A stretch of DNA of 21,853 nt from Gemmatimonadales bacterium (GTDB taxonomy: Bacteria > Gemmatimonadota > Gemmatimonadetes > Gemmatimonadales > GWC2-71-9), in assembly GCA_041613315.1 (NCBI GenBank), contig JBFJHJ010000042.1, forward strand, positions 1 through 21,853. The letters are read 5' to 3'. Under the pieces are notes generated by a model, which had not been told where the DNA came from, made no database searches, and saw nothing but the letters and a program-made list of their open reading frames with translations. Position numbers and translations under genes: made by a program. Positions within the stretch are counted from its first letter, which is position 1. Every line of letters begins with the position of its first letter. This document shows, in pieces, positions 1-19,903 of the stretch.

Positions 1-560
1 ACCGACAGCACATTGTTGAAATCGTGCGCCACCCCACCGGCGAGGCGCCCCACCTCCTCCAGTTTCTGCGCCTGGCGGAGCTGGGCCTCGAGCATCTCCC
101 GCTCGCGGTCGCGGAGCTGAGTCAGCGCCCGCTCGACGCGTTTGCGCTCCGTGATGTCCTGGCAGGTCGTGACGACGCCGATCGGCTCGCCCGCGACATC
201 ACGCACCACATCCGACAGTAGCTCGACGGGGAACTCGCTCCCGTCCTTCCGCACGTTGACGCTCTCACGCTTCCAACTGGTGAGCGTCCGTAGCGCTTCC
301 CTCGTGAGTGGTGTGCGCTCCCCCTCCGTCGCGAAGACCGCGACGCTTCGGCCTAGCAGCTCGCTCACCGTGTAGCCGTGCATGACCGCATCGGTCCGGT
401 TCGTGTATACGATCCGGCCGTCGGGATCGGTGATCGTCACGCCAAGCTGCATCGTCTCGAGCGCGTGGCTGAGGCGGTGCAGGGTGTCTTGGGACGGCGC
501 CCGCAGGCCCGAGTCCCACGGCCTTGGCTTCACCGGCTGACCATCCATAGGCTCACGCAT
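1..560 (-). CDS. PAS-domain histidine kinase, CckA/NtrB-like, running off the left edge
   Basis: Not in the ORF track. Hand translation from ATG 560 (overlaps the TGA of the upstream receiver gene): MREPMDGQ...GVTITDPDGRIVYTN...RKDGSEFPVEL...QDITERKR...EAQLRQAQKLEEVGRLAGGVAHDFNNVLS. This gives PAS/PAC plus the HDFNN H-box. Confidence 0.92.
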   Translation of the reverse strand, partial: MREPMDGQPVKPRPWDSGLRAPSQDTLHRLSHALETMQLGVTITDPDGRIVYTNRTDAVMHGYTVSELLGRSVAVFATEGERTPLTREALRTLTSWKRESVNVRKDGSEFPVELLSDVVRDVAGEPIGVVTTCQDITERKRVERALTQLRDREREMLEAQLRQAQKLEEVGRLAGGVAHDFNNVLS

Positions 561-1047
561 CGGCCACGCCGCTCTGCCGTGGCGTCGTGTCGGCCGCCGC
601 CAGCAGCGTCTGAAGCGGCTCGCGCAGCTCGTCCAGGGTCCACGGCTTCGCGAGAAACGGGACACCGGAGTCGAGCTGGTCCCACCCACCCTGACCGCGG
701 GACGGGTTCCCGCTCATCATCAAGAACTTCATCTCGCGGTCGCCGCCGTCACGCACCGCGCGATACAACTCGCCCCCCGACATCCGCGGCATCGCCATAT
801 CCGAGAGAATCAGGTCGATCTCGCCGCCACGGGCGCGGTAGATCTCCAACGCCTCGTGGCCGTCCGCCGCGACGAAAAGTCGAAACCCCAACCGTTCGAG
901 GACGCGGCCGGTGAGACGCCGCACGTCCGGATCGTCGTCGACGACCAGGATCGTCTGGCGCGGCCTTCCGGGATCGCCGGCGGACCCGCGATGCCAGTGG
1001 GCCTCGTTCTGCGGCGCCCGTTCCGGTGGTCTCGTCATCAGACTCAT
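553..1047 (-). CDS. Stand-alone response regulator receiver protein
   Basis: ILVVDDD, LILSDMAMP (phospho-Asp), MMSG and FLAKPW motifs; GAGGGAG ribosome-binding site before ATG 1047. Confidence 0.92.
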   Translation of the reverse strand: MSLMTRPPERAPQNEAHWHRGSAGDPGRPRQTILVVDDDPDVRRLTGRVLERLGFRLFVAADGHEALEIYRARGGEIDLILSDMAMPRMSGGELYRAVRDGGDREMKFLMMSGNPSRGQGGWDQLDSGVPFLAKPWTLDELREPLQTLLAAADTTPRQSGVADA

Positions 1048-1057
1048 CGCTCCCTCG

Positions 1058-1255
1058 TTAGTTGCCGACCGGGGGCCGGCTCGCTGAACGCTGTTTCGGG
1101 GTGCGCTTGGACTCTCGCGGCACGGCCTCCCGCCACGCGAAGTGCCGGTCGCAGGACGGGCAGATCACCCACGCCCCCAGAACGTCCTGCCGCACATGCG
1201 TCGTGACCGAGCGGCAGTGGGGACATTGCAGTCTCATCTCCTGTTGCTCCGGCAT
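1058..1255 (-). CDS. Small zinc-ribbon-like protein (CxxC-x17-CxxC)
   Basis: CPHC...WVICPSCDRHFAW. GGAGG precedes ATG 1255 (alternative start 1237). The track start at 1345 lies upstream of the sigma54 promoter. A paralogous motif occurs at 10094-10186. Confidence 0.75.
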   Translation of the reverse strand: MPEQQEMRLQCPHCRSVTTHVRQDVLGAWVICPSCDRHFAWREAVPRESKRTPKQRSASRPPVGN

Positions 1256-1306
1256 AGGTCCGGTCCTCCATTCCATCCGGTGTTCCCGCCTTGCAGCACG
1301 GATAGA

Positions 1307-1322
1307 AGCAGAGACCGTGCCC
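1307..1322 (-). promoter_or_regulatory. sigma54 (RpoN) -24/-12 promoter
   Basis: Minus strand GGGCACGGTCTCTGCT, GG-N10-GC, close to the TGGCACG-N4-TTGCW consensus. Confidence 0.8.
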
Positions 1323-1348
1323 ATGCGATGCCGAGATTCCGCCATGCT

Positions 1349-1374
1349 GTAAGTCCATTTAATACAACCATTTG
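1349..1374. promoter_or_regulatory. IHF-like dyad between promoter and enhancer
   Basis: GTAA-gtcc-ATT-taata-CAA-ccat-TTG; AT-rich, with the CAA-N4-TTR core of the IHF consensus. Confidence 0.6.
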
Positions 1375-1419
1375 AGACACGTCTTATCGTTAGGTGTTGC
1401 CCCGTTTCCCCCGTGCCCC

Positions 1420-1447
1420 GTTACCGGCTCGTAACGCGCGTCGTAAC
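1420..1447. promoter_or_regulatory. Putative upstream activator (enhancer) site, copy 1
   Basis: GTTAC-cggctc-GTAAC-gcgcgtc-GTAAC; the same spacing occurs in three other intergenic regions. Confidence 0.78.
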
Positions 1448-1463
1448 GCTCCCCGACGCGCCA

Positions 1464-1958
1464 CTATTCGGCCGGCGCGTCTTCGAGCGCGTGAAACAGT
1501 CGCGCCTCCAGCACTTCGCGGTCACGCTCGCGCCCGCGGTTCGCCACCTCGCCGCGCTCTGGCCGGTCCGAGATGTCCTGACACGTCGTCACGATGCCGA
1601 TCGGCTCGCCGTCGGCCCCCCGGATCACGTCGGAGAGCAGCTCGACCGGAAACACGGTCCCGTCCTTGCGCACGTTGAGCGTCTCCCGCTTCCAACTCCG
1701 GAGCGCCTGGAGCCCCTCCAGTGTGAGCGGACGGCGCGCGCCCTCCGGCGCGAAGACTTCCACGTCGCGTCCGGCGAGCTCCTCGACCGTGTAGCCATGC
1801 ATCTCGGCCTCCGTCCGGTTCACGTACACGATCCGGCCCTCGAGGTCGGCGATGGTGACCCCCATCGGCATCGCCTCCAGCGCGGACGACAGCCGGCGCA
1901 GGGTCTCCGCCGCTTGTTCCAGTGCGACGCGGTCTGCGTCGCGCTCTTTATCACGCAT
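1464..1958 (-). CDS. Stand-alone PAS/PAC domain protein
   Basis: GVTIADLEGRIVYVN...HGYTVEELAGR...RKDGTVFPVEL...QDISDR; no output domain; starts 18 nt after the stop of the giant barrel gene. Confidence 0.88.
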   Translation of the reverse strand: MRDKERDADRVALEQAAETLRRLSSALEAMPMGVTIADLEGRIVYVNRTEAEMHGYTVEELAGRDVEVFAPEGARRPLTLEGLQALRSWKRETLNVRKDGTVFPVELLSDVIRGADGEPIGIVTTCQDISDRPERGEVANRGRERDREVLEARLFHALEDAPAE

Positions 1959-1976
1959 CGTCGCGCCCCGTGGGTC

Positions 1977-4900
1977 TCAGTTGTGGCCGAGCCGCGCCCG
2001 CCAGAACTCCGCTAGCGACGCAAACGACCGCTCGGTCAGTGCGGCGCCGAACGTGACGAACCACCCGGCCCCGCCGTTCACGGCGAAGTCGGGATCCCGC
2101 AGGTCGCCGAGGCGGTAGCCGCCGGCCACTTCCAGGCCGCGCACCGGCTGCAACACGAGTTGCGGGGCGAGATCCCAGCGGTAGGTGTCGCTGGTGCGTT
2201 CGATGAGCAGGCGACCCTCGCCCCGCACCCCCAACCACGGCGTCATCTCGAGGTCGAGTCGCGCGCCCGCGTAGTCGGCGAGCGATCGGAGATCCTGCGC
2301 CGTGCCGTCGGGGTGGGCGACACTGGCCGAGCTGCGACGCACGGCGTAGCGGGCGGCGAGCTCGCCCCACGCCACCGGCGCCCAGATCGCCTCAGCGGCG
2401 AGGATGGTCCGGGTCTCGTGGCCGTCGGTGGCCAGCACGGCGCCGCCTAGAGGATTCACGGCGTCCACGTACTGCACCTTGGCGAGCACGTTGAGCGCGT
2501 CGGAGCCGACCGGCCGGAAGGCGAGGCCGTTGAGCGACGAGAGCTGCCGGTGCGAGGTGGTCCCGCCGGGCAGCGCCTGCTCCGTCGCCAGCAGCTCCTG
2601 CCGGGTGAGCAGGGCGAACGAGCGGCCCAGCGACACGTCACCGGCCGCGGTGACGAGCCGGCTCGACCGGATCTCACCTTCCCGCAGTTCCCCGCGCGCG
2701 CTCAGGCGATACGGCGCGCCGGGCGGCAGCAGTTCCACCCCCAGGCCGAGCGACCAGTAGTCCTCTTCCTGTTGGAGGAACGGCAGGGCGCGCACCGGAT
2801 CGGCGACCGGTGCAGCGGCCAAGCCCATCCGACGCTCGAAGAGCGCCTGGACGGTCCAGGCCTGTCCCAGCTTGAGGCGGTTGTTGAGACCGACGACGGC
2901 GGCATTGTGCGCCCCGTCGGCGCCGGCGATCTGGTACGAGCCCCACGCCTCGGTGCCGAACCCGATGTCGGTCCGCATCCCGAGATTGGTGAGTGCGTAG
3001 CTCGCGCCGCCCGGCAACAACACCTGGCGATGGAAGGCCTCGAGCGAGACCCGCGGGCCGACGCGGAGCCGGGCACCGCCGCCCACGTGATCCGGCCGGA
3101 CGACGCTCCCGCTGGAGCTGAGCTGGCGGCGGCCCTCGGTCCACAGGCTGAGCGCGGGCACCGGGGTCCAGCTCAGCTTGAACTCGCCGGCCTGTGAGAG
3201 ATCGGTGCCGGTGCCGGTCTCGAACCGATCGGCCGCGACGCCGGCCTCCACCTGGACCTGGCCGCCCAGGGACTGCACCACGGTCCCGCTCGTGCGGGAA
3301 CGGGTCACATCCTGCGCGTCGAAGTGCTGGCTCGTGTGCTCGACGCGAAGCTCGCTCGCCCCGACCTTGAACCGGCCGCCCAGGCGCAGCTCCTCCGTCC
3401 CGCCCTGGAGCGCCACGTTCGCCGGATTGTGGAACTCCTGATCCGCGTGCAGCCACGCGCCACTCAACATCACGGCGCCACCAGCCAGGGACAGGGTGCC
3501 CTCGACGGCGGTCGCAAATCCGCTCGAGTCGGGCGACTCGGAGTGCGCGACCTCGGCCCCAAGCGCGAGCCCGTCACGGCGCAGGATCTTGAGGTCCACG
3601 CCGGCGAGCCGCCGCTCCGCACCCGGCCGCCCGTCCTGGATGAAGGTCGTTCCGAGCTGCAGGGAATCGACCAGGTCGCCCGCCAACGCCCGCGCGTCCA
3701 CCGCCGCCCGCACGCCCCACACCGTGGACGCCGAACCGCCATCCTCGGCCTCGTAGGTCACGACGATGAACACCGGGTTGCCGGACGCGTCGGTGGCCGG
3801 CACCGGGCGCTTGAAGAGCAGGAGCCCCAGCCCGTAGTCGATCTGGTAGTCCACGAACCGGCCGAGCACCTGACGCGCGACCGTCCGCTGCGGGTTCTCG
3901 AACGCGCGCGTCTCGATCGTGATCCGCTCGGTCCCCGGCCTGATATCCGGCCGGAGATTGTAGGGGCCGGACACGCCGGCGCCCCGCACCTGGAGCTGCT
4001 CGACGCGCTGGCTGGTGGAGCTCCCGAAGCCCTGCCACACCACCGGGCCGGTCGTGACGCGGCCGGCGGCCCCCGCCAGCGTCCGATCGTAGCCGGAAAG
4101 GGTGAGTCCCTCGGCGAAGGCGCCGGTCGAGACGTCACCCAACGCCACCCAGTCGAAGCCGCGCTCCAGGCGGGCCGCGAAGGCGTACGGCGAGGCGCTC
4201 ATGGTGCGCCGCGCGCTCGCGTCGCCCAGAATCGGGTAGCGCGACTCCTCCAACGGATCGTACGAGCGACCGAACGCGTCGCGACCGGCGTCGAGCCGCC
4301 GCGAGTCGAAGCTCAGCACGACCGACGTGCGCCGATCCAGCCGCCCTCGCGCCGTCACCGCGCCGAACGCGTCCGGACTCGCGCCCACGCCCACCCGCCC
4401 GACCGCCGTCACCATGAGCGGCCGGATCGCCGGCAAGACCTCGAGCGCGACCTGCTGCACCGCGTCCCCGGACGCCACCCGGAGCGTCCCCGTCCGCACC
4501 TCCCGACCCGGCCGGAGCGCCACGTCCACCCAGCCGGACTCGTCCGAGCGGACCTGCAGCCCGACCGACGACGGATCGGCGTCTGCACCGGCCGGCTCCG
4601 CGCCCTCGGCCGACACGGTCACGAACGCCCCACCCGTCACCGGCACACCCCACCGGTCCACGACCCGGACCGCAACCGTCTCGACGCTCTGCCCGTCCGC
4701 GACGAGTTGAACCGGGGCACCGTTCACCACGAGCCGGGCCGGCCGGCCCGACACGTGGACGGCCACGCTGTCCCACCGCTCCTGGTTCCACGAGTTGGTC
4801 ATCCGGACGCGCAGCACGTGCGGCCCGCGATCGAGGGACACCGCGATGAAGTCGTGCACGCCGTCGGGCCGGAGCTTGGCCCGCGCGATGATCGAGTCAC

Positions 4901-7900
4901 CGTCGAACAGCTCGACCGGCGCGCCCGGCTCGCCGCGCACGCCCACGAAGACCCGATCGCTGGGAAGCACCGCGCCATCGGCGGGGGTGAACACGGTGAC
5001 CGCTGGGCCGTTCAGGAACGCCCGCGTGCCCTCGGCCTCCCGTTCTTCGGCGCTCCTCAAGGCGGCGACGACGACCGGTGCGGACTCACGGCGTGCCACC
5101 GGCGCGATCACTGCCGCCCCCGCCGGGGCGAGCGAGCCCTCCACGGGCCGGAGCGGGTTGTGCACCTCGGCCAGCAGCCGGGTGGGTGACCCGTCGCCGA
5201 GCGCCACCAGGACGGCCGCCGAATCCGACCGGGCCGCGCGCGCGCGGAACGTCCGGGTCGCCCCGGCCGGAATGCTCGCCAGCGCCCAACGCCCGTCGCC
5301 CAGCGCGGTGACGTTGGAGCCGTCGTCGCTCGTCAGTCCCACGGCCTGCGGATCGAAGGTCAGGACGAGACCCGCCAGCGCGGCGCCCGATGGGTTGGTG
5401 ACCGCGACCTCGTACTCCACCGCGCGCGTCGCGCCGTCACGCTCAACGAGACGAACCTCGACCCGACGGTTGCGCTGGGCCGATTCCGTGTCCGACACAC
5501 CGGCCATCGGCTCGGACGAGCCGACCCCTCTGACCGCGACGACCGGGCCGGTGAGACCGCTTCCCTGAAGCTCGTACGCCACCCATTCCGCCCGGGCGTC
5601 CGAGAGGACCCAATTGTTCCAGTACGGCGCGCCCCGCACGTCGGCGCTGTCGGCGTGCCCGACGATCTCCACCACGCAGTCGGGATGCTCGGCGCGCGCC
5701 GTGCTGAGGTGCCGCACGAGCCGCGCCGGGTCGAGCGCGTAGGTGGGCCGCGCGCTGTTGGTCGCGAAGTGTGCGACCGCCGCGCGGTCGGCCCGGGCAC
5801 CCGGCACGAGATCGGCGAGCCCGGAGCAGACGGGGCGCGCGGTAAAGCGCACCGGCACCGGAAGCCGCTCGGCCTGCGGCGCGCCTTTGCGCGGCACGAC
5901 CGCGAAGTTCATCCGGGGCGTCGTCCAACCGCTGCCGTCCCGGACGACGATGTCCGTGCCGGCGCCGACCGCGTACGCCGCCGGGAGCGTCGCGGGATCC
6001 AGCCGGTAGGCGTGGCGCCCGGGCCGCATGTTGTGGAACGAGAACTTCCCGTCCGGATCGGTCGTGACGATCTCGCCGTCGTCGCTCCACACGTCGACCC
6101 CTTCGATCCCCGGCTCACCCCCGTCCTGGACGCCGTTCCGGTTCACGTCGGCAAAGACCTTGCCGATTGCCGCCCGGGTCTCCATCGGCCAACCGCGCCG
6201 GACCCGGACCCACGCCGTCACCGACGCCGACCGCACGAAATCCGCCTCGGCGGTCGCGTAGGCCGTGTTCTCCAGCACCTCGCGGTCGGCCGACACAACG
6301 GCAACCGCGTAGCGGACCGTGTGGCTGGCCCCGGGGGCTAGCGGCCCCGCGATGTAGATCGTGAGGTTGGGTCCGTCCGCCGTGACCGAGTCCGCGCCGC
6401 GGACGCTGCCCCGAGCGTAGCGACCCCCGTCGGGCAGCCGGTCGTAGATCCGGATGTCGGCGAGCGGCAAGGTGCCGGTGTTTCGGACCGTCAGCGTGTA
6501 GGGCGCGGTCTCGCCCAGCCCTACCTCCAACACGTCGGCGGCCTTCTCGAGGTCGAGCTGGTTGGCGGCGATCCCGAACAGCGTCACCGGCGGGGCGGCG
6601 GCCGTGGTCGTCGGACCGTTATCGGCGTCCATGACGACGCCGTTCACGGCCACCACCGAATCGCGGACGCTCGCCGCGACGCTCAGCTGGAGGACGATCT
6701 CGGCCGTGGCGCCCGCCGCCACGTCGCCGACCGCCCAGGTGAGGACCGATCCGGCGACGGCCGCCGCGGGCGTCGCGCTCACGTAGTCGAGCCCCGTCGG
6801 CAGCGTGTCGGTCAAGACGACGTTGCGCGCGGCGACCGTTGGCGAGGTATTGCCGTAGCGGATCCGATAGGCCACCACGTCGCCCACGCGCGCCGTCGCC
6901 GCGCTCTCGAGCAGCTTCTCCACGAAGAGCTCGGGGAGCACGAGCGTCGTCGTCACCGCGTTCGACACGACGGAATCGGTGCCGGCGACCGTCTCGTAGC
7001 TCGCCCGGGCCACGTTGGACGGCGAGCCGCGTCCGTCGAGCCTCGCCTGGAAGCTCACCGTGCCGCGAGCGCCCGGCGCCGCGGCGGCGATCGTCACACT
7101 CACGCGGTTGGCGCCGGCGTCGTAGGCGCCGGCATCGTCCCCGGCGACGTCGGTGAGCGGCGCGCCGTCCAACAGCAGGCTCCCCGCCACGTAGGCGGTG
7201 CCGAACGGCACGGCGTCCGTGATCACCAGGTTGGTCGCCGGAGTCGACCCGCTGGCGTCGTACGTCACGGCGTAGGTGACGACGTCGCCCGTGGTGGCCG
7301 ACGCCAGGTCCACGACCTTGGAGAGGCCCACCACGATGCCGACGTCCCGCACCGACACGATGTCCTGGAGCTGGTCGGCGACCGCCGCGTCGAACTGGCT
7401 GACCCCGCGAACGTCGATCGTGTCGGCGGTGCCGCGCACGGTGGCGACGCCCGGGACATCGACGACCACGAGCAGGTAGGCCGAGTCGCCCGCGGCGAGC
7501 GCGACCGGTGCGGTGACCAGGGGGTCGCCGGCGTCCAGCGCTCCGTCACGATTGGCGTCGATGTGGAGGCGGACGGCCCATCCGGCGCGCGAGACGGCCG
7601 TCAGGGCGACCACGTCGCTGCCGTTGCCGAGGTTCGCCAGCGTGTGCGGGAAGACGACCGTGTTGCCGGGGTCGGCGATGCTCGTGCGCGCGGGCTCCAG
7701 ATCCAGGCCGGCCACCTGCCCAACGGTGAGCAGGGAGGTGTCCGACGTCACGGAGAGGGTGAGGCCGTTCGCCGCCTGGTAGGTGGCCGCGGCCCAGTTG
7801 CGGATGGTGGTACCCGCGGGCGTCTGCGCCCGCAGCTCGGTCCCGCCCAGCGCCAGAAACGCCACAAGCCCGGCCACCATCACGTGACGGTGCCGGTGCC

Positions 7901-7943
7901 AGCGTTCCTTCGCTGTAAGACCGACTGCGAGCCAGGTGTTCAA
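1977..7943 (-). CDS. Giant secreted outer-membrane protein: DUF11 repeats, SdrD-B-like domain, OmpA-like domain and predicted large C-terminal beta-barrel
   Basis: TTG start after AGAGG; signal peptide ending ELRA|Q. Three GD/E-x-x-x-Y...TD/YDxxP DUF11 repeats; GKVFADVNRNGVQDGGEPG; OmpA motifs FATNSA, IVGHADS, LSDARA, RNRRVEV; about 800 aa of alternating amphipathic strands at the C-terminus. Confidence 0.9.
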   Translation of the reverse strand: MNTWLAVGLTAKERWHRHRHVMVAGLVAFLALGGTELRAQTPAGTTIRNWAAATYQAANGLTLSVTSDTSLLTVGQVAGLDLEPARTSIADPGNTVVFPHTLANLGNGSDVVALTAVSRAGWAVRLHIDANRDGALDAGDPLVTAPVALAAGDSAYLLVVVDVPGVATVRGTADTIDVRGVSQFDAAVADQLQDIVSVRDVGIVVGLSKVVDLASATTGDVVTYAVTYDASGSTPATNLVITDAVPFGTAYVAGSLLLDGAPLTDVAGDDAGAYDAGANRVSVTIAAAAPGARGTVSFQARLDGRGSPSNVARASYETVAGTDSVVSNAVTTTLVLPELFVEKLLESAATARVGDVVAYRIRYGNTSPTVAARNVVLTDTLPTGLDYVSATPAAAVAGSVLTWAVGDVAAGATAEIVLQLSVAASVRDSVVAVNGVVMDADNGPTTTAAAPPVTLFGIAANQLDLEKAADVLEVGLGETAPYTLTVRNTGTLPLADIRIYDRLPDGGRYARGSVRGADSVTADGPNLTIYIAGPLAPGASHTVRYAVAVVSADREVLENTAYATAEADFVRSASVTAWVRVRRGWPMETRAAIGKVFADVNRNGVQDGGEPGIEGVDVWSDDGEIVTTDPDGKFSFHNMRPGRHAYRLDPATLPAAYAVGAGTDIVVRDGSGWTTPRMNFAVVPRKGAPQAERLPVPVRFTARPVCSGLADLVPGARADRAAVAHFATNSARPTYALDPARLVRHLSTARAEHPDCVVEIVGHADSADVRGAPYWNNWVLSDARAEWVAYELQGSGLTGPVVAVRGVGSSEPMAGVSDTESAQRNRRVEVRLVERDGATRAVEYEVAVTNPSGAALAGLVLTFDPQAVGLTSDDGSNVTALGDGRWALASIPAGATRTFRARAARSDSAAVLVALGDGSPTRLLAEVHNPLRPVEGSLAPAGAAVIAPVARRESAPVVVAALRSAEEREAEGTRAFLNGPAVTVFTPADGAVLPSDRVFVGVRGEPGAPVELFDGDSIIARAKLRPDGVHDFIAVSLDRGPHVLRVRMTNSWNQERWDSVAVHVSGRPARLVVNGAPVQLVADGQSVETVAVRVVDRWGVPVTGGAFVTVSAEGAEPAGADADPSSVGLQVRSDESGWVDVALRPGREVRTGTLRVASGDAVQQVALEVLPAIRPLMVTAVGRVGVGASPDAFGAVTARGRLDRRTSVVLSFDSRRLDAGRDAFGRSYDPLEESRYPILGDASARRTMSASPYAFAARLERGFDWVALGDVSTGAFAEGLTLSGYDRTLAGAAGRVTTGPVVWQGFGSSTSQRVEQLQVRGAGVSGPYNLRPDIRPGTERITIETRAFENPQRTVARQVLGRFVDYQIDYGLGLLLFKRPVPATDASGNPVFIVVTYEAEDGGSASTVWGVRAAVDARALAGDLVDSLQLGTTFIQDGRPGAERRLAGVDLKILRRDGLALGAEVAHSESPDSSGFATAVEGTLSLAGGAVMLSGAWLHADQEFHNPANVALQGGTEELRLGGRFKVGASELRVEHTSQHFDAQDVTRSRTSGTVVQSLGGQVQVEAGVAADRFETGTGTDLSQAGEFKLSWTPVPALSLWTEGRRQLSSSGSVVRPDHVGGGARLRVGPRVSLEAFHRQVLLPGGASYALTNLGMRTDIGFGTEAWGSYQIAGADGAHNAAVVGLNNRLKLGQAWTVQALFERRMGLAAAPVADPVRALPFLQQEEDYWSLGLGVELLPPGAPYRLSARGELREGEIRSSRLVTAAGDVSLGRSFALLTRQELLATEQALPGGTTSHRQLSSLNGLAFRPVGSDALNVLAKVQYVDAVNPLGGAVLATDGHETRTILAAEAIWAPVAWGELAARYAVRRSSASVAHPDGTAQDLRSLADYAGARLDLEMTPWLGVRGEGRLLIERTSDTYRWDLAPQLVLQPVRGLEVAGGYRLGDLRDPDFAVNGGAGWFVTFGAALTERSFASLAEFWRARLGHN

Positions 7944-8000
7944 GTTGACCTCTTTGCTCGAGCGTGCTGCGGTACTGCTGCCTAGGCGCTGGCTACCAGT

Positions 8001-8016
8001 AGCACGGGACGTGCCG
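8001..8016 (-). promoter_or_regulatory. sigma54 -24/-12 promoter
   Basis: Minus strand CGGCACGTCCCGTGCT, GG-N10-GC, about 60 nt upstream of the 7943 start. Confidence 0.78.
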
Positions 8017-8039
8017 CGGTGGGCGCTGCGGGGCCGATC

Positions 8040-8066
8040 GTAAGCCCTTCTTTCACAATGGATTAC
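8040..8066. promoter_or_regulatory. IHF-like dyad
   Basis: GTAA-gccc-TTC-tttca-CAA-tgga-TTAC. Confidence 0.62.
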
Positions 8067-8106
8067 AGACCTTCAGAGCAGTGGGGAAACCACGGAAGGG
8101 GCTCCG

Positions 8107-8134
8107 GTTACCGTCCGGGAACACGTCGAGTAAC
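8107..8134. promoter_or_regulatory. Putative enhancer site, copy 2
   Basis: GTTAC-cgtccg-GGAAC-acgtcga-GTAAC. Confidence 0.78.
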
Positions 8135-8187
8135 CGCGCTGGGGGAGGCGGGATCGTGAGTCGGGGTGGCGCGTGCCCAAACGACGA

Positions 8188-8217
8188 GCCCCCATCGGCC
8201 CACGGGCCGATGGGGGC
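8188..8217 (-). terminator. Strong hairpin after the shaft-like gene (terminator or mRNA stabiliser)
   Basis: Perfect inverted repeat GCCCCCATCGGCCC-ac-GGGCCGATGGGGGC, 30 nt after the stop. It is followed on the minus strand by TCGTCGTTT, a weak U-tract. Confidence 0.65.
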
Positions 8218-8247
8218 GGTGTCGCTCCGCCCGACTTTGGGGGCGGG

Positions 8248-9483
8248 TTAGTTCACGCTCGCCCGGATCCAGAAGAACCGGCTCGCGCCTGCTGCGAGGG
8301 ACCCCGAGAGGTCCGCGTCGACATCGTTGCCGACGTTGTTGAACGTCCATCCTGCCGCGTCACCGGTGGCCGACGCGAAGGTCAGCTGCGCCGGGAGCAG
8401 GTCGTCCACGTGCACGCTGTCCGCCGGCGCGGAGCCGCCGTTGGTGACCGTGATCCGGTACTGGATGAACTCGCCCGGAAGCACCCGGTCGGCCGCGCCG
8501 ATGACCGTCGTCTGGTCGTCGCGGTACGCCACCTTGGCGATGGTCAGGGCCGGCCGCACCACGGTGAGGTCGGCAAAGCCGTTGTCGCTGATCGCACTGT
8601 TCGTCACCGAGCGGGCCATGAGCACGAGTGTGTCAACCGTACCCGCGGCGACCTGGCCGATCGAGTAGATGACGTCGATGTTCTGCGACGCGCCGGACAG
8701 GACGCCGGTGATGCGCGTGCTGTCGCCGGCCACACCGTTGACCGAGACGATGGTGATCGCGACACCGGGGTTCGACGCAATGAGGTCGAATCCGTCGGTG
8801 CCGTTTCCGGTGTTGGTCACGGTGAACGAGAACGTGTAGTTCGTCCCGTTACTGGGCAGCTGCTGGAGGTTCTGCCCGCCGTCGGGCGTCACCGTCACGG
8901 CCACCACCTGATTGGGCGTGATCGTCGTGGCATCGTTGTCCGACACCCCGGCGTCACGGCGCGACGTGGCCGTCATCGTGTAGACCGTCGATTGACCGCC
9001 GGTCCCCGCGGCGACGTCGTAGATCACCTGGATGGTGATGGACCCACCCTGGGCGATCCCAACCGAGGACAGCGCGGTGTTGAGCGCCGCCAGGCTGCCG
9101 TAGGTCGTTCCCGCGTAGCGGTAGCCCGTCACCGTGATGATGCCGCCGACGGAGATCGCCTCCGAGACGGTGACACTGTCCGTGCCGTTCCCGATGTTGT
9201 CGATCTGGAACGCGATCGTGTCCGCCGTGCTGGGCGACGCCGGCGCCACCGCGGCGGCGGCGGCGATCACGTCAATGCCGGCCACGAAGCCGACCGTGAC
9301 GTCCACCGTGTCCGCCACGGGCGTATAGGTATTGTTGTTCGCGTCGGTGAACGTCACCGTCGCGATGTTGCGGATGACCGTCCCCTCCGGGGTCTGGCCA
9401 TGCGCCGGGCGCGCGATGAACGCCGCTGCCAGCGCAGCGAGCGTCAGGAGCAGCCCGATCTTGATCAAGCGGTTGCCGTGCAT
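8248..9483 (-). CDS. Secreted DUF11/Ig-like protein, putative fibre shaft subunit (~411 aa)
   Basis: AAGGAG ribosome-binding site before ATG 9483; signal peptide ending PAHG|Q; two NxGNGTD Ig-like domains; C-terminal DUF11 (LTIAK...PGEFIQYRITVTN...DDLLP) ending FWIRASVN. Confidence 0.9.
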   Translation of the reverse strand: MHGNRLIKIGLLLTLAALAAAFIARPAHGQTPEGTVIRNIATVTFTDANNNTYTPVADTVDVTVGFVAGIDVIAAAAAVAPASPSTADTIAFQIDNIGNGTDSVTVSEAISVGGIITVTGYRYAGTTYGSLAALNTALSSVGIAQGGSITIQVIYDVAAGTGGQSTVYTMTATSRRDAGVSDNDATTITPNQVVAVTVTPDGGQNLQQLPSNGTNYTFSFTVTNTGNGTDGFDLIASNPGVAITIVSVNGVAGDSTRITGVLSGASQNIDVIYSIGQVAAGTVDTLVLMARSVTNSAISDNGFADLTVVRPALTIAKVAYRDDQTTVIGAADRVLPGEFIQYRITVTNGGSAPADSVHVDDLLPAQLTFASATGDAAGWTFNNVGNDVDADLSGSLAAGASRFFWIRASVN

Positions 9484-9499
9484 CGAAAGTCTCCTTGGC

Positions 9500-10216
9500 T
9501 CACTCATCGTCGTTAGGGCTGCTCGCTCGTCTGTCGCGAGCCGAATCATTCTCAAGACCGGCCGGTGGGGCGAGCTCCGCTCGGAACTCGGCCGTCACCT
9601 GGGCGCCGGGTGCCACCCATCCCTTCACCGTCCACCGCACGTGGGTGTACGCCTCGGGCGGCGCGGGCCGCTCGACCCGCTCGCCGTCCACCTCCACCAC
9701 CACCGTGGGGTGCGTGACGAACGTGGCTCCGCCGTCAATCGAGTACTCGACGGTCACGTCGTCGCGGTCGGCCGTCGCCGAGGCCAGCACATAGCGCAGC
9801 CCCGACGGGACCGGATTCGTGAAGACCACGCCGCGCACCTCGGCGGCGGTCACGTTCGTGAACAGCAGGCGGTAGCGGACCGTGTCGCCCGGAAGCAGCG
9901 CAGCGGCGTCCCCCCCGCGCGCCTCGAACTCCTGGTGCCGCGCGTCGCCCGCCTGGAGATTCTCCGCCGTCACCACCAGCGCCCGGGCCGGCTCCGGCTC
10001 CTGGCCCGCCAGTGGCGCCGCGGTCGCGACCGCACAGACCGCGAGGACGGCCGCCACGCCCGCCGCGAACGGCGTGCGGGCACGGGCGCCCTCCCACGCG
10101 AAGTGCCGATCGCACGCGGGACAGATCACCCACCCACTTCGGACGTCGTTCGCGTCGTGGCTCCCGATCGCGCGGCAGTGCGCGCAGCGAATCATCACGA
10201 CACTCCGTGCTGACAT
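9500..10216 (-). CDS. Single DUF11-like protein with N-terminal zinc ribbon and signal-like segment (~238 aa)
   Basis: GAGGAGTGAGGGG before ATG 10216; CAHC-x17-CPAC; hydrophobic AAGVAAVLAVCAVATAAPLAG|Q; PGDTVRYRLLFTN...NPVPSGLRYV...EYSIDGG...YTHVRW. Confidence 0.87.
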   Translation of the reverse strand: MSARSVVMIRCAHCRAIGSHDANDVRSGWVICPACDRHFAWEGARARTPFAAGVAAVLAVCAVATAAPLAGQEPEPARALVVTAENLQAGDARHQEFEARGGDAAALLPGDTVRYRLLFTNVTAAEVRGVVFTNPVPSGLRYVLASATADRDDVTVEYSIDGGATFVTHPTVVVEVDGERVERPAPPEAYTHVRWTVKGWVAPGAQVTAEFRAELAPPAGLENDSARDRRASSPNDDE

Positions 10217-10302
10217 CCCCTCACTCCTCTGTGGCGGAGCGGCGCTCGGCCGCCCAGTGTTCACCCTGCGGGTGTACCTGCGCCCGCTCGTTCCTTGCTA
10301 TT

Positions 10303-10318
10303 TGCAGGGGCCGTGCCG
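10303..10318 (-). promoter_or_regulatory. sigma54 -24/-12 promoter
   Basis: Minus strand CGGCACGGCCCCTGCA, GG-N10-GC. Confidence 0.8.
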
Positions 10319-10343
10319 GACCGGCGACTTCAGGTCCAACAGC

Positions 10344-10370
10344 GTAACACCCTGTTCCACAAGCGTTTGC
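10344..10370. promoter_or_regulatory. IHF-like dyad
   Basis: GTAA-cacc-CTG-ttcca-CAA-gcgt-TTGC. Confidence 0.6.
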
Positions 10371-10413
10371 GATCAACTGCCGGTGCTCTCAGTCGAGCCG
10401 TTCACGCCCCAGT

Positions 10414-10441
10414 GTTACCGAACGGGAACGGGCTCGGTAAC
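10414..10441. promoter_or_regulatory. Putative enhancer site, copy 3
   Basis: GTTAC-cgaacg-GGAAC-gggctcg-GTAAC. Confidence 0.78.
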
Positions 10442-10495
10442 CGCCATGACGCCGCAAGCGTGAGCTCGGCGCACCGGCATCGAAGGCTCTCCCAT

Positions 10496-13400
10496 TCACC
10501 GCACCCGCGCGACGAACTCGAACTGGCCCGTGTCGTCGGGTGCGATGTGGCTCAGCGGATCCTGCAGCGCCCAGCGGATGTGCGTGACGCAGTCATCGTA
10601 GCCCGCGGGCGCGCTGCACCCCGCATCCACCGGCGTGTACGTCCAGGAGGCGGCCCCATCGTTGGAGTAGCTCACGGTGACCCCCACGCCGGGGGGAAGC
10701 GTGGTCGCGACGCTCCCGACTTTGAAGCCCACCTGCGCCGGAAGCGAGTCCACATGGACCACGCTCACCGCCGCTTCGCTGCCGGCGTTGGTCACGGTGA
10801 TCGTGTAGCTGAGATCGGTACCGGGCAGGGGCGTCCCGCCCGGGGTCACGGTTTTGCCGATCGTGAGGTTGGGCCGCACGACCACCAGTTCCAACCGGGC
10901 GTCGTCGGCCTTGCTTGGAGCGCCGACGGAGCGCGCGGTCAGGACCAGCGTGTCGGTGGTCCCCGCCGGCACCGAGGCCACGGCGTAGGTCACGGTGACC
11001 GTGGCGGTCAGGCCCTGCCCGAGATTCGCGAGGCGCGCGCTATCGGGGTTCGCCCCCTGGGTCACGCCGGGCCCCGTGATCGAGATGACGGTGATCGTGC
11101 CGCCCGGGAGCTTGACGGTCAGGAGATCATAGCTGTCGCTGATGCTCCCGATGTTCGCCACGGTGAAATCGACCGTGTAGTTGGTGCCGTTGCTCGGCAG
11201 GCGCGACGCCCTTTGCGTATCGGGCACGACGGCCACGTCGTAGGTCGGCCCGAAGATGGTCTTGGTCCGCGTGTCCGACGTGTTCGCCACGCCGTCGTTG
11301 TAGACCTCCAGCTCCAGCCGGCGGGCGAACGACGCGGACGTGAAGTTCATGAAGCTCAGCCCCTTCACGTTCAGCCAGTCGTCGGCCGCGAAGTTCGTGA
11401 GCACGTCGATCACCAGCGTCTTGCCGCCGTCCTCGTAGGTCACGGTACTCGACACCTTGTTCCGGGCGCGGCCGGAGAGTTGCGGGCTGACGTCCGTCGT
11501 GTCCCAGATCATGTCCAGGCCGGCGGGAATCCTGATCCGGATGTCGTTGGCCGCCGTGATCTGTGGGAACGGGTCGTCGGTCACCCGGAGCGTGACCATT
11601 TCGGTGACGGGATCGCCCACCGTGAAGCTCTGATCGGCGGCCGATGAGAGGTTGGGCGTAACGGCGATGAACACGATGAAGACGACCTTGTCGTCCTCGG
11701 CCGAGACCGCACCGTCGTTCCGCACCTCCAGCTCCAGGTTGTCATCCGGCGAGGCGGCGGTGAAGTTCCGGAAGCTCAGTCCCGAGATTGTGATGACGTC
11801 GTTCGGCGCGAAGTCGGTGAGCACGTCGATCACCAGGGTCTTGCCCCCGTCCTCATAGCTCACCGTGCTCGACACCTTGCCCGCCGCCGTGCCGAGGATC
11901 AGCGCCGAGACGTCCGTCACGTCCCAGCTCATGTTGAAGCCCGCCGGGATCCGGATCCGGATGTCGTTGACCGCGGTGATCGACCGCGTGACGGCATCGT
12001 CGGTCACGGTGATCGTGCTGATCGTGGTCGGCGCGTCGCCCACCCGGAAGCTCTGGTCGAACTCCGAGGAGATGCGCGGCACACCAGCGGCGATGACCGT
12101 GATCGTCTTGTCGTCGGTCGCCATCACCGTGTCGTCGTTGCGCACTTCGAGCTCGAGCCGGGCCGGCCCCGAGGTCGTCGTGAAGCTGGCGAAGCTCAAC
12201 CCCGACACGGTGATCTGGTCTCCCGCCACGAAGTTGCTCGTCACGTCGAGCACCAGCGTCTTGCCACCGTCCTCGTAGCTCACCGTGCTCGAGACCTTGC
12301 TCGCGGCCGCACCCCCGATCACCGCGGAGAGATCGGCGGTGTCCCACGTCATGGTGAGCCCCGCTGGGATGCGGATCCGGATGTCGTTGGCCGCCGTGAT
12401 CGAGGCGACCGTGCTCTCGGTGATCGTGATCGTGCCGATCGGCTGCGGCGGGTCCCCCACCGGGAAGTTCTGGTTCGCCGCCGAGGAGATCGTTGGCCGC
12501 ACCACCTGGAGGTCAGCCGACCCGTCGTCGAATACGGCAGGCGTCGTCACCGAGCGCGCCCGGAGCCTCAGCGTGTCCACCGTCCCGGCCGGGACGTCGC
12601 CGATCGAGTAGACAACGGCGATGTTCTGCGATGCGCCGGCCGCCAAATTGGTGATCCGCGTGCTGTCCCCGGCCACGCCGTTGACGGAGATGATCGTGAT
12701 CGCCGCCCCCGTCTTCGAGGCCAACAGATCAAAGGACTGCGAACCCGCTCCCGTGCCGTTCGTCACGGTGAACGTGAAGCTGTAGGTCGGGCCGCTCGGG
12801 AGGTGCCGCAGGTTCTGCCCGTTATCGGGCGTCACGGTCACCGAGGGGAGCACCTGCACCTCGAACGCGCCAACATCGCTCGCGGGACCCTGCGGGCGCG
12901 CAATGCCTCGCTGGTCGGTGGCGGGCGCGTCGGCCGCGAGCGCGTAGTCTATCGCGGGGCTGCCGACTCCTAGCGCGCGGGTAAAGCTGTTACCCCCGTT
13001 GTCCTGCAATGGGCCGAGGAGCGGGTCGCCGGTGAGGTCCGTCGGCGCGCAGCCCGTGCACCCCCCCTGGACCACGTTCCGCCCGTTGGAGACGAGGCTT
13101 CCGCCCGTGCCGCCGATCTGCCCACCCGTGTTGTTTGCCACGATCGTGTTCCGCAGGGTCAGGGTCCCCCCGCTTCGCATGATCCCCCCACCGCTCCCGC
13201 TGGGTGCGCTGTTGTGGCTGATCGTGCTGTTGATCAGCGTCAGCTGCACGCCGTCGTTGAGAATCCCGCCGCCCTGGCCCCCTGTCGTGACCGTGTTCCC
13301 GCTAACTGTCGAGTTTCGCAGCGTCAGCGTCTGCCTGTTGATGATGCCGCCCCCATCGCTGCCGCCGGCGTTATTCCCGCTGATCGTGCTTTGGACGACG

Positions 13401-13789
13401 GTGAGCGTCCCGTCGTTGCGGATGCCCGCGCCGTCCTGGCCGGCCCCTCCACGGATCGTGAGCCCCGTGAAAGTGACCACGACATTGTCAACGCGAAACA
13501 CGCGCGAGGCACCGTTCGCGTCGATGACGACGCGGCCACCGCCCGTGTTCTGAATCGTGAGGTTCCGGCTGATACGGAGCTCGCCTGATCCACTGCTCGT
13601 CAGGAGATACGTACCGGGGACGATGTTGATCGTGCTGATGCTGGGGTTCGCGATGGCGGCCCGAAGCTCGGCCATCGTGGTGACGGTCGTCGACTGTCCC
13701 TGCGCCGCCTCCCACGAGAATACGAGCGCCACGAGGGCCCCCAGGAGGACCCATCCCGTCCGTCGGATTTCGCTGCGCGCTGGGCTCAT
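10496..13789 (-). CDS. Secreted adhesin-like protein: beta-helix/choice-of-anchor-Q-like head, Ig-like repeats, C-terminal DUF11 (~1097 aa)
   Basis: AGGGGAG before ATG 13789; signal peptide ending AAQG|Q. GGGI-x-N...NSTISGN-type beta-helix repeats; DPLLGPLQDNGG...SPAID...DQRG...DVGAFE; three ~140-aa repeats; terminal DUF11 ending FEFVARVR. Confidence 0.9.
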   Translation of the reverse strand: MSPARSEIRRTGWVLLGALVALVFSWEAAQGQSTTVTTMAELRAAIANPSISTINIVPGTYLLTSSGSGELRISRNLTIQNTGGGRVVIDANGASRVFRVDNVVVTFTGLTIRGGAGQDGAGIRNDGTLTVVQSTISGNNAGGSDGGGIINRQTLTLRNSTVSGNTVTTGGQGGGILNDGVQLTLINSTISHNSAPSGSGGGIMRSGGTLTLRNTIVANNTGGQIGGTGGSLVSNGRNVVQGGCTGCAPTDLTGDPLLGPLQDNGGNSFTRALGVGSPAIDYALAADAPATDQRGIARPQGPASDVGAFEVQVLPSVTVTPDNGQNLRHLPSGPTYSFTFTVTNGTGAGSQSFDLLASKTGAAITIISVNGVAGDSTRITNLAAGASQNIAVVYSIGDVPAGTVDTLRLRARSVTTPAVFDDGSADLQVVRPTISSAANQNFPVGDPPQPIGTITITESTVASITAANDIRIRIPAGLTMTWDTADLSAVIGGAAASKVSSTVSYEDGGKTLVLDVTSNFVAGDQITVSGLSFASFTTTSGPARLELEVRNDDTVMATDDKTITVIAAGVPRISSEFDQSFRVGDAPTTISTITVTDDAVTRSITAVNDIRIRIPAGFNMSWDVTDVSALILGTAAGKVSSTVSYEDGGKTLVIDVLTDFAPNDVITISGLSFRNFTAASPDDNLELEVRNDGAVSAEDDKVVFIVFIAVTPNLSSAADQSFTVGDPVTEMVTLRVTDDPFPQITAANDIRIRIPAGLDMIWDTTDVSPQLSGRARNKVSSTVTYEDGGKTLVIDVLTNFAADDWLNVKGLSFMNFTSASFARRLELEVYNDGVANTSDTRTKTIFGPTYDVAVVPDTQRASRLPSNGTNYTVDFTVANIGSISDSYDLLTVKLPGGTITVISITGPGVTQGANPDSARLANLGQGLTATVTVTYAVASVPAGTTDTLVLTARSVGAPSKADDARLELVVVRPNLTIGKTVTPGGTPLPGTDLSYTITVTNAGSEAAVSVVHVDSLPAQVGFKVGSVATTLPPGVGVTVSYSNDGAASWTYTPVDAGCSAPAGYDDCVTHIRWALQDPLSHIAPDDTGQFEFVARVR
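11250..12496 (-). repeat. Three tandem intragenic repeats of ~139-141 aa
   Basis: Units start near 12496, 12079 and 11656. Each has ITAxNDIRIRIPAG, KVSSTVxYEDGGKTLVxDV and LELEVxND. Confidence 0.92.
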
Positions 13790-13885
13790 CGCTCCCCTAC
13801 GTATCCAGATCGGCTCGCCGCCGTCGGTTCTGGACGCCGGCCGCGCCGGCCGCCTCACGCTGTCGTACCGGTCACTTGTCCCTGA

Positions 13886-13901
13886 AGCAGCACTCGTGCC
13901 G
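13886..13901 (-). promoter_or_regulatory. sigma54 -24/-12 promoter
   Basis: Minus strand CGGCACGAGTGCTGCT, GG-N10-GC. Confidence 0.8.
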
Positions 13902-13916
13902 CCGCTCCGACTTGGC

Positions 13917-13942
13917 GTAAGATGTTGTCTCGCATGACGATG
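13917..13942. promoter_or_regulatory. IHF-like dyad (right half degenerate)
   Basis: GTAA-gatg-TTG-tctcg-CAT-gacg-ATG; the left half reads CAA-catc-TTA on the minus strand. Confidence 0.5.
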
Positions 13943-13976
13943 GAGGGAACGCACCGGCCCGGGCCGGCGGGAGCGC

Positions 13977-14004
13977 GTTACCGTCCGGTGACGGCCGCGG
14001 TAAC
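13977..14004. promoter_or_regulatory. Putative enhancer site, copy 4
   Basis: GTTAC-cgtccg-GTGAC-ggccgcg-GTAAC, 23 nt from the activator gene stop. Confidence 0.78.
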
Positions 14005-14027
14005 GGAAACCCCGTTTGGAAGGTGAG

Positions 14028-15404: not shown

Positions 15405-15484
15405 CTATCGAATCTTTCTTCCCATGAGCGTCGCTCACAAGCCCGCCGGGCACCCCCGGCGCCCCCAGCGGTAACCTCCGCGCC

Positions 15485-15868
15485 ATGGCGAAAGGCTTCA
15501 GCGTCGTCGTCATCGAGGACGATCCCGATCTCAGAAAGCTGATCCAAGTCACCCTGCAGTTTACGGCGGGGTGGGAGGTCGCGACAGCCGAGGACGGCCC
15601 GAGTGGCATCGCGGCCGTCCAGGCGGCGCGCCCCGACGCCGTCGTCGTTGACCTCATGATGCCGGGCATGGACGGCTACGAGGTCTGCCGGCGGCTCAAG
15701 GCCGACAAGGCGACCACCGGCATTCCGCTCGTCTTGCTGACCGCACGGAAGGAGGTGGACGAGAACCGCGTGCGAGCGGCCGGGGCCGCCGGCGTGATTC
15801 TCAAGCCCTTTAGCCTCGACGAGTTGGCGCCCCGCATCCGTGGACTGAGCGGCCACCAGGAACCATGA
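15485..15868 (+). CDS. Single-domain response regulator (CheY-like)
   Basis: VIEDD, VDLMMPGMDG, LLTA and LKPF motifs. Confidence 0.93.
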   Translation: MAKGFSVVVIEDDPDLRKLIQVTLQFTAGWEVATAEDGPSGIAAVQAARPDAVVVDLMMPGMDGYEVCRRLKADKATTGIPLVLLTARKEVDENRVRAAGAAGVILKPFSLDELAPRIRGLSGHQEP

Positions 15869-16239
15869 GCGAGCCGACCAGCGCGGAGCCGTTCGATCAC
15901 GAGCGAGCGTTGGCGCAGGTGCGCCGCGAGTTCGTGGGCGGGCTCGGCGCCCGCCTCGTGTCCATACGCGTGGCGCTGGACCGGCTCGCCCGAGAGTTCG
16001 CCCCGCGCCACGCGGAGGCGTTCTACCTGCCGGTCCATTCGCTGAAAGGCACCGCGGCCGCGTTCGGCGCGACCGAGCTGGTGCCGCATGCGACGCGCCT
16101 GGCCGATCTCGGCCGGGTGTGGAGAGAGAGCGGCGCCGCCCCGCCGGCGACCGACGTCGCGAGCGCCCGCCGCGAGCTCGAGCTGTTGGAGACCGCGGTC
16201 CAGCACTACGTCGACCGCCTCCCGGATGGCGGCTCGTGA
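15865..16239 (+). CDS. Stand-alone HPt (histidine phosphotransfer) protein
   Basis: VHSLKGTAAAFG HPt motif; ATGA overlap with the preceding gene. Confidence 0.9.
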   Translation: MSEPTSAEPFDHERALAQVRREFVGGLGARLVSIRVALDRLAREFAPRHAEAFYLPVHSLKGTAAAFGATELVPHATRLADLGRVWRESGAAPPATDVASARRELELLETAVQHYVDRLPDGGS

Positions 16240-18973: not shown

Positions 18974-19046
<73 letters not shown>

Positions 19047-19247: not shown

Positions 19248-19263
19248 CGGCACGGAGCTTGCT
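19248..19263 (+). promoter_or_regulatory. sigma54 -24/-12 promoter upstream of the pilin
   Basis: CGGCACGGAGCTTGCT, one mismatch to TGGCACG-N4-TTGCT. Confidence 0.8.
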
Positions 19264-19304
19264 AATGTGGGGGCGCTCGCAGACATGTGGAGATGGTCGG
19301 GGCT

Positions 19305-19868: not shown

Positions 19869-19903
19869 TCGACACGTACATCCGAGCAGCGCCTGGAGGA
19901 GCG

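Follow-up and report, generated by a model that had tools for sequence, protein, structure and literature searches.

The subject of this report is a set of four repeated promoters, and the activator encoded beside them, on contig JBFJHJ010000042.1 of the Gemmatimonadales bacterium assembly GCA_041613315.1. The whole stretch of 21,853 nucleotides that was analysed is referred to as the window. Each promoter is composed of a 28-base motif, an AT-rich dyad of the integration host factor (IHF) type and a sigma-54 box, and these elements and the activator gene are placed as follows.

1307..1321, minus strand: sigma-54 site 1, predicted start near 1296
1350..1374, minus strand: IHF-type dyad 1, 10/12
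1420..1447, minus strand: candidate enhancer copy 1, 30.3 bits
8001..8015, minus strand: sigma-54 site 2, predicted start near 7990
8041..8065, minus strand: IHF-type dyad 2, 11/12
8107..8134, minus strand: candidate enhancer copy 2, 29.1 bits
10303..10317, minus strand: sigma-54 site 3, predicted start near 10292, serving genes 9500-10195 and 8248-9483
10345..10369, minus strand: IHF-type dyad 3, 11/12
10414..10441, minus strand: candidate enhancer copy 3, 30.7 bits
13886..13900, minus strand: sigma-54 site 4, predicted start near 13875
13918..13942, minus strand: IHF-type dyad 4, 10/12
13977..14004, minus strand: candidate enhancer copy 4, before the tip-adhesin gene and 23 bases behind the activator stop codon, 29.8 bits
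14028..15404, minus strand: NtrC-family activator with receiver (REC), AAA+ and helix-turn-helix (HTH) domains, likely binder of the motif

The motif, GTTAC-N7-GTYMC-N5-GGTAAC, matches exactly at 1420, 8107, 10414 and 13977, and the sigma-54 pattern GGCACG-N4-STGCW matches the minus strand exactly at 1307, 8001, 10303 and 13886; the coordinates given for both in a first-pass annotation of the window were all exact. The IHF-like dyad that had been described between motif and promoter was also recovered in all four regions, as YAA-N4-TTG-N5-CAA-N4-TTR at 10-11 of 12 positions, the IHF label being based on the E. coli IHF consensus. Sigma-54 promoters are as a rule activated from a site some 80-150 bases upstream of the start, in many cases with an IHF site in between, and start 12 bases after the GC. 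The -24 GG and -12 GC are correctly spaced in 4/4 sites here, and the motif ends 76-98 bases ahead of the GG. No sigma-70-like site was found in 1-16500. When 100 shuffles were scanned with two mismatches tolerated there were 0 motif matches, although this test is circular because the pattern was drawn from the four window sites.

It is very unlikely that the four copies merely reflect local duplication of one promoter cassette, with some of them, that at 1420 above all, as passengers. Promoters 1 and 3 are indeed similar in spacing (98 and 96 bases), each lies upstream of a zinc ribbon, and next to promoter 1 stands a PAS gene that is likely a truncated duplicate. However, alignment of the four regions on the gene strand showed that only the half-sites, the AT-rich dyad and the promoter bases are common to them, the spacers having diverged, and in other genera, too, kinases and zinc ribbons are preceded by equivalent promoters.

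Distribution of the motif within and beyond the genome

The 28-base pattern occurs in the 2.63 Mb genome at the four places in the window only, even at two mismatches, and the genome-wide scan that had been proposed as a check thus left these four as the only strong copies. The reduced form GTTAC-N18-GTAAC was found 4 times, always in the window, against 0.07 expected per spacing; at the other spacings from 0 to 40 there were two occurrences at N6 and one at N30. A matrix was trained on 29 distinct sites from the orthologue loci of other genomes (chosen by the window pattern with ≤2 mismatches), and it scored the four window sites at 29-31 bits and the next best sites of the genome at 14.4 and 12.9. 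Seven other sigma-54 boxes in the genome have a dyad at ≥9/12 but no motif; the dyad is therefore generic and the motif specific.

Weaker motif sites, each with a dyad and a sigma-54 box, are present on two other contigs of this genome, C11 and C46, where they precede a secreted 248-aa protein and a receiver, respectively. In locus L148 a homologue of the C11 protein comes second among the genes that follow a motif (E 2e-10). The 248-aa protein (L296 267-1010, on C11) has a WHNHP motif, which presumably resembles a JAB/MPN-type metal site, and no Pfam match. In four of five closed relatives a distant promoter copy drives a second type of zinc ribbon. Because of the C11 and C46 sites and the distant copies in the closed genomes, the regulon is concluded to be small but not purely local, and the 'local' regulon first proposed was too narrow.

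Across genomes the gene-strand consensus is GTTAC-N7-GTTAC-N5-GGTAAC, that is, half-sites in the order forward, forward, reverse, with centres 12 and 11 bases apart; the earlier description, a degenerate palindrome plus a third half-site, is refined accordingly. Degeneracy is tolerated in any one half-site: it affects the middle half-site of three window copies, the first half-site at C11, and the last both at C46 and in genome G126. The invariant internal spacing that had been claimed holds in the window and fails elsewhere: forms shorter by 1 base occur in G013 and G020, the genes of G020 being frameshifted as well. The matrix gave 38 matches in 25/29 loci of activator orthologues versus 0 in 51 loci around other activators. 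Autoregulation through the motif was considered and rejected: 0/38 of these matches lie upstream of the activator's 3' end.

The architecture around the motif is conserved with it. A sigma-54 box lies 50-120 bases downstream in 54/55 distinct sites and a dyad of ≥9/12 is present in 48/55, compared with 3% of random windows in either case. The distances from motif to dyad are clustered at 21-23, 31-34 and 39-46 bases (52/55 rows), and those from dyad to GG at 15-19 and 24-29 (50/55 rows), the clusters lying about 11 bases apart. Three and five of the 55 rows, respectively, were left out because of a dyad that scored 7 or did not keep register, or because of a weak or abutting sigma-54 box. Clustering of this kind is as expected if the helical face matters.

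A motif-only metagenome scan covered 80 loci of at least 120, of which 74 are distinct, and 50/74 proved to be part of this system. About a third of the exact matches lie outside it, some in GTTACC-rich repeats, as they might if the motif were an RNA element, a repeat or the end of a mobile element with no role in initiation. That explanation is extremely unlikely, however, since the motif lies upstream of the predicted start, keeps its helical phase and has a fixed orientation to the sigma-54 box, which was found on the predicted side in 48/73 metagenome loci and on the other side in 0/68. One strong copy (L164 4449-4476, genome G280) lies directly against a tRNA-like sequence, with no sigma-54 box on its downstream side.

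Candidate binder of the motif

The activator has a PF00072 receiver with an acidic pocket (D9-D11), a phospho-acceptor aspartate (D54) and K104, an AAA+ domain (PF00158, 212 bits) with the Walker A sequence GESGTGK and the loop GAFTDA, and a C-terminal Fis-type HTH_8 domain (PF02954) with the helix SRKSLWERRKK. Its 29 named close orthologues (66-80% identity) are all Gemmatimonadota records, the next matches falling to 37-43%, and in a tree the orthologues form one clade on a long stem (1.01, SH-aLRT 100). The protein scored below the cut-off in all 25 NCBIfam families listed, including NtrC, AtoC, ZraR, PrsR, NtrX and FlgR; the best score was for AtoC, 422 against a cut-off of 714. The genome also has rpoN and two genes of the HU/IHF type.

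Co-occurrence was examined in 300 Gemmatimonadales genomes, with the motif scored at ≤1 mismatch; the unpublished genomes G122 and G281 enter the counts only among the 280 negatives. The C-terminal 147 aa of the activator gave a clean gap between 19 genomes (E <1e-47) and the rest (E >1e-34), and G128, in which the gene is cut at a contig end, brings the activator genomes to 20. The motif was found in 19/20 of these and in 3/280 others, and a reversed-pattern control matched in 6/300. The twentieth activator genome, G126, carries two degenerate copies where the motif would be expected, and no sigma-54 site was found at the stray motif in any of the three other genomes.

The major fibre subunit is encoded in 24/300 genomes, 18 with the activator and 6 without, and the motif is absent from 6/6 of the latter. 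A sigma-54 box is nevertheless kept in 4/5 of the activator-less clusters with readable upstream DNA, and therefore other activators presumably drive them. Conversely, G151 and G320 have the activator and the motif without the major subunit, the motif there preceding kinase genes, whereas G168 and G204 have a kinase-Hpt-receiver set (Hpt, a phosphotransfer protein) with a different neighbour, no activator there and no motif. It is thus the activator that the motif tracks, and not the fibre genes.

The other five activators encoded in the genome occur in 2, 55, 2, 59 and 22 of 60 relatives and do not fit the distribution of the motif. The adjacent activator occurs in 6/60, the same six that have the motif or a variant beside it; the first pattern used also gave single stray matches in three others. 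A putative seventh activator at the cut end of C46 was rejected, its best relatives being receiver plus membrane-segment proteins without AAA+. A protein of the latter type occupies the activator's usual place in two genomes (L298 7114-7812, L299 7345-7974); in the present genome the gene most closely related to it is the one behind a motif that is cut off where C46 starts.

On the grounds of co-occurrence, synteny, helical phasing and the exclusion of the five other activators, the product of 14028-15404 is the likely binder of the motif, as had been suggested when the window was first annotated; that suggestion is now strongly supported, with binding itself being predicted. Several observations weigh against it. 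The genomes are related, so the co-occurrence counts are not independent events; 4/29 orthologue loci have no motif within the DNA covered; and 24/74 metagenome matches are unrelated to the system. The genome is 83% complete, and a further regulator could be missing. In addition, the activator, Hpt and zinc ribbon travel together, and therefore co-occurrence alone cannot exclude another member of the module as binder.

It is accordingly conceivable, if improbable, that another protein of the travelling module, such as a zinc-ribbon microprotein or a regulator missing from the assembly, binds the motif and that the activator acts from another site or from solution. The zinc ribbon (17/300) and Hpt (21/300) nearly match the genome profile of the activator. 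However, no zinc-ribbon match was found in G151 and G320, which have motif and activator, and Hpt is present in G168 and G204, which lack the motif. The recognition helix of the activator, SRK(N/S/T)LWx(K/R)RK, is near-invariant among orthologues that are only 56-80% identical overall, and the motif is helically phased and at enhancer distance.

A further alternative, distinctly improbable, is that the activator binds the motif but acts mainly as a FleQ-like repressor or dual regulator, or works without sigma-54. It would account for the loop GAFTDA, which replaces GAFTGA in nearly all orthologues. The same G5-to-D change is present, however, in the validated activator FlgR (PMC3162934). Also against this alternative, sigma-54 boxes and dyads are conserved at an activating distance, and no sigma-70-like site was found in 1-16500. 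The overall reading retained, in our judgement very probable, is that the motif is the enhancer of the adjacent NtrC-family activator, which would switch on a predicted split-DUF11 pilus, zinc-ribbon microproteins and signalling genes.

Genes and operons behind the promoters

The genes downstream of the four promoters, and those divergent from the activator, are the following.

3..575, minus strand: PAS hybrid histidine kinase, truncated where the contig ends
553..1047, minus strand: single-domain receiver
1058..1252, minus strand: stand-alone C4 zinc-ribbon microprotein of about 60 aa, start 1252 or 1237, 51% identical to the ribbon 10070-10198
1464..1958, minus strand: PAS-only gene, likely a truncated duplicate, 74% DNA identity to the PAS region 126-488
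1977..7943, minus strand: predicted outer-membrane base of about 1970-1990 aa, DUF11-SdrD_B-OmpA-barrel
8188..8217, minus strand: RNA hairpin of 13 pairs after the major-subunit stop, no U tail, region z = -2.7
8248..9483, minus strand: predicted major subunit of 411 aa with a donor hairpin at 30-67, then two complete Ig-like domains and, at 310-411, the acceptor DUF11 domain
9500..10195, minus strand: in-frame fusion of a C4 zinc ribbon with a signal peptide and one DUF11 domain of the acceptor-only kind
10496..13789, minus strand: predicted tip adhesin, signal peptide, beta-helix/choice-of-anchor Q, repeated Ig-like domains, C-terminal DUF11 acceptor
15485..15868, plus strand: single-domain receiver, divergent from the activator
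15865..16239, plus strand: Hpt phosphotransfer protein
16119..17885, plus strand: GAF-PAS-HisKA-HATPase kinase without membrane helix, start 16119 or near 16233

Read from right to left, the minus strand carries the activator, promoter 4, the tip-like adhesin, promoter 3, the zinc ribbon/small DUF11 protein, the 411-aa DUF11 protein, the hairpin, promoter 2, the 1988-aa barrel protein, the PAS remnant and promoter 1, and then, at the left end, the second zinc ribbon, the receiver and the PAS kinase. The promoter at 1307 drives no fibre gene but the zinc ribbon, receiver and PAS kinase. The proposal of the first-pass annotation that the fibre genes are separately promoted was only half right: 9500-10195 and 8248-9483 are separated by a 16-base gap and share the promoter at 10303, and a promoter before the barrel gene is found in only 5/15 activator-bearing clusters. 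The common pair across clusters is one promoter before the tip gene and one before the zinc ribbon/small gene.

Where a promoter lies between the major subunit and barrel genes it is always behind a strong hairpin. In the clusters that have no internal promoter the two genes directly adjoin, and in many of these clusters the first codons of the barrel gene contain a hairpin. Long RNA hairpins were seen in the barrel signal-peptide codons of L059, L044, L057, L060, L072 and L100, in folds of the first 110 bases after the major-subunit stop made without a shuffle control; a role in translational dosing is possible. No intrinsic, U-tailed terminators and no sigma-70 promoters were found between the fibre genes on the minus strand. 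The hairpin after the major-subunit gene fits the tuning of subunit ratios, and the operon layout would fit the dosing of much shaft and little base. In two activator-less loci (L152 13050-13640, L156 9230-9800) the tip gene and the rest diverge from two sigma-54 boxes.

Among the first genes of the regulon the most constant is the zinc ribbon, whose pattern is MxLRCPxC...W(V)VCPxCExPFxWRE. All 17 of the 300 genomes that encode it are among the 20 activator genomes, and it is present in 0/6 activator-less fibre genomes. Most copies stand alone, at about 60 aa, whereas in 3/24 aligned copies, that behind promoter 3 here among them, the ribbon is joined to the small DUF11 protein. No family scored above its cut-off, and the Atlas gave only unnamed small clusters. 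The ribbon 10070-10198 is of cytoplasmic type and stands in frame before a signal peptide, and L055 and L072 carry the same fusion. Signal peptidase may set the ribbon free, or a second start may produce it.

Among the orthologue loci, Hpt is found in 26/29, the receiver in 23/29 and the kinase in 21/29. The kinase is followed directly by a 140-aa protein without a Pfam match (17937-18359, plus strand). At the left end, window positions 1-1306 match the end of contig C5 (106694-107996) at 91.7%, the match ending beside the sigma-54 site, which reflects either a strain-variant overlap or a duplicate; the end of C5 holds a whole 593-aa hybrid kinase.

Further right, a fifth good sigma-54 box (19249-19263, plus strand, one mismatch) has neither motif nor dyad and precedes a type IV pilin-like gene (19287-19868) with an N-methylation motif and a Gly-rich tail. 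The pilin-like gene and tRNA-Phe (18974-19046) are flanked by paralogous small membrane proteins (18550-18918 and 19775-20338, plus strand; 71% DNA identity over 119 bases) that have no Pfam match.

Predicted fibre and proposed mechanism

The targets of the three right-hand promoters are predicted to form a split-DUF11 donor-hairpin pilus. TIGR01451 scored above its cut-off in all four fibre genes when DUF11 was tested for with PF01345 and TIGR01451. The model of the 411-aa protein has three Ig-like domains (pLDDT 91); no solved structure was found by sequence, and fold searches returned generic Ig-like domains (Z ≤11.3). In a two-copy model the chains lie head to tail, with residues 30-67 of one against 310-411 of the other, at a score of 0.71, the best of three controls reaching 0.00; the mark set for complexes is reached by 20/30 solved homodimers and 1/23 monomers. 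Across the complex runs contact agreement was at least 2% and partner pLDDT at least 88.

The barrel protein begins with the same hairpin, which is followed by three complete DUF11 domains, SdrD_B, an OmpA peptidoglycan-binding domain and a large C-terminal beta-barrel. The tip and the small protein end in an acceptor-type domain, and no hairpin was found in them. The small protein has Ala at the aligned Lys position in 59/59 homologues, and the product of 9500-10195 is likely a cap or chaperone. The last 819 residues of the base protein were modelled as about 40 strands (pLDDT 78); Foldseek, the only fold search used for the barrel, gave outer-membrane barrels as best matches at TM ≤0.30 (LptD, SlpA, BtuB, FimD), and there is no Pfam match.

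In the two-copy model K317 faces residue N39 of the following chain, and D361 is near them. Over 102 aligned rows Lys is conserved at 317 in 102/102, Asp or Glu at 361 in 102/102 and Asn at 39 in 62/102. Other results count against this picture of the fibre. One of the three complex runs (0.71, 0.73, 0.02) scored 0.02. The likeness of the lead hairpin to internal DUF11 hairpins was judged by eye only, and a profile of the lead hairpin detected 0/96 of the last hairpins of complete internal DUF11 domains. Residue 39 is Ser in 40/102 major subunits and the Lys of the tip is Asn in 24/51, and therefore a covalent lock cannot be general.

The following mechanism is proposed. Phosphate from the divergent soluble GAF-PAS kinase would reach D54 of the activator by way of the receiver and Hpt, an order inferred from adjacency, which itself weakens the proposal. 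One HTH dimer would then sit on the inner palindrome, GTTAC-N6-GTAAC, while the third half-site, a helical turn further upstream, would take up an additional HTH, and occupancy of the three half-sites would favour assembly of the hexamer. Bending of the DNA by an IHF/HU protein would allow the AAA+ ring to reach the sigma-54 polymerase. Promoter 4 would then give the tip, promoter 3 the zinc ribbon/acceptor and major subunit up to the hairpin, and promoter 2 would restart transcription for the barrel base; promoter 1 would give the second zinc ribbon, the receiver and the hybrid kinase, possibly as feedback. The subunits would be joined head to tail, the N-terminal hairpin of one completing the C-terminal DUF11 domain of the next, and in some lineages a Lys-Asn isopeptide lock between subunits is possible.

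Several published systems come close to this one. The CbrB site of Pseudomonas is TGTTAC-N12-14-GTAACA-N15-19-GTAACA (PMC6296734, PMC8871633). CbrB is an IHF-dependent NtrC-family sigma-54 activator with three subsites and a GTTAC/GTAAC core, features that are either seen or predicted for the window activator and its motif as well. Its half-sites, however, run forward, reverse, reverse, with loose spacing and no palindrome, whereas those here run forward, forward, reverse, nearly rigidly and with an inner palindrome; and CbrA is a membrane transporter-fused kinase, whereas the kinase here is a soluble GAF-PAS protein with a receiver and Hpt.

In the PrsR/PEP-CTERM system (PMC1569441) a motif with a sigma-54 box is likewise repeated before surface-protein genes, and the regulator was also assigned by phylogenetic profile, with the same logic and the same level of proof. 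It differs in its targets and kinase, and with TIGR02915, whose cut-off is 502.6, the window activator reaches a score of 358. That sigma-54 controls surface structures is itself a known theme (PMC3162934).

For the fibre, DUF11/CLIPPER domains (PMC12617251; PDB 9IFR) of surface proteins have a CnaA-like Ig fold and a Lys-Asp-Asn isopeptide triad; K317, D361 and N39 of the model would correspond to it, with Asn present in 62/102 rows only. The CLIPPER bond is intramolecular and lies in adhesin stalks, whereas in the model here the terminal domain would be split, with Lys and Asp on one chain and Asn on the next. BsaA of Clostridium perfringens combines donor-strand polymerisation with an exchange-and-lock isopeptide (PMC11580942). 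It belongs to a different fold family, and the donor here is a two-strand hairpin.

Chaperone-usher pili are polymerised by donor strands and share the layout of tip, shaft and barrel. Their fold family is different, however, and the barrel here is fused to a donor hairpin, DUF11 domains and OmpA; donor-strand complementation between subunits is seen here in the two-copy model only. No Pfam match to the PapC/FimD usher or the PapD chaperone was found, FimD appearing only among the weak barrel matches (TM 0.18-0.23).

A literature search, with most subscription journals outside its scope, returned no paper on this activator, motif, regulon or cluster. The logic of enhancer, IHF and sigma-54 promoter is textbook; the new part is the pairing of activator and site, the unusual geometry and the uncharacterised pilus as output. 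Promoter anatomy, rarity, conservation and co-occurrence with one activator clade are observed directly. The fullest version of the proposal, in which a dedicated Gemmatimonadota phosphorelay acts through a rigid enhancer read by three HTHs of the ring, with a zinc-ribbon feedback regulator, to produce a dosed new class of pilus (split CLIPPER, head to tail, with intermolecular isopeptide seals and export through its own very large barrel), is tentative, and we consider it unlikely to be right in every part.

These results point to a regulator, its probable binding site and its regulon in a phylum that is common but has hardly been studied. The geometry of the rigid forward-forward-reverse site is unusual and lends itself to the question of how activator rings are arranged on DNA, and the assignment of activator to motif is within reach of a test in E. 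coli with one protein and one 28-mer. The motif also serves as a marker by which distant targets can be found. It links an uncharacterised type of pilus with one particular soluble sensor and with a conserved microprotein, and so suggests a way to switch the fibre on for study.

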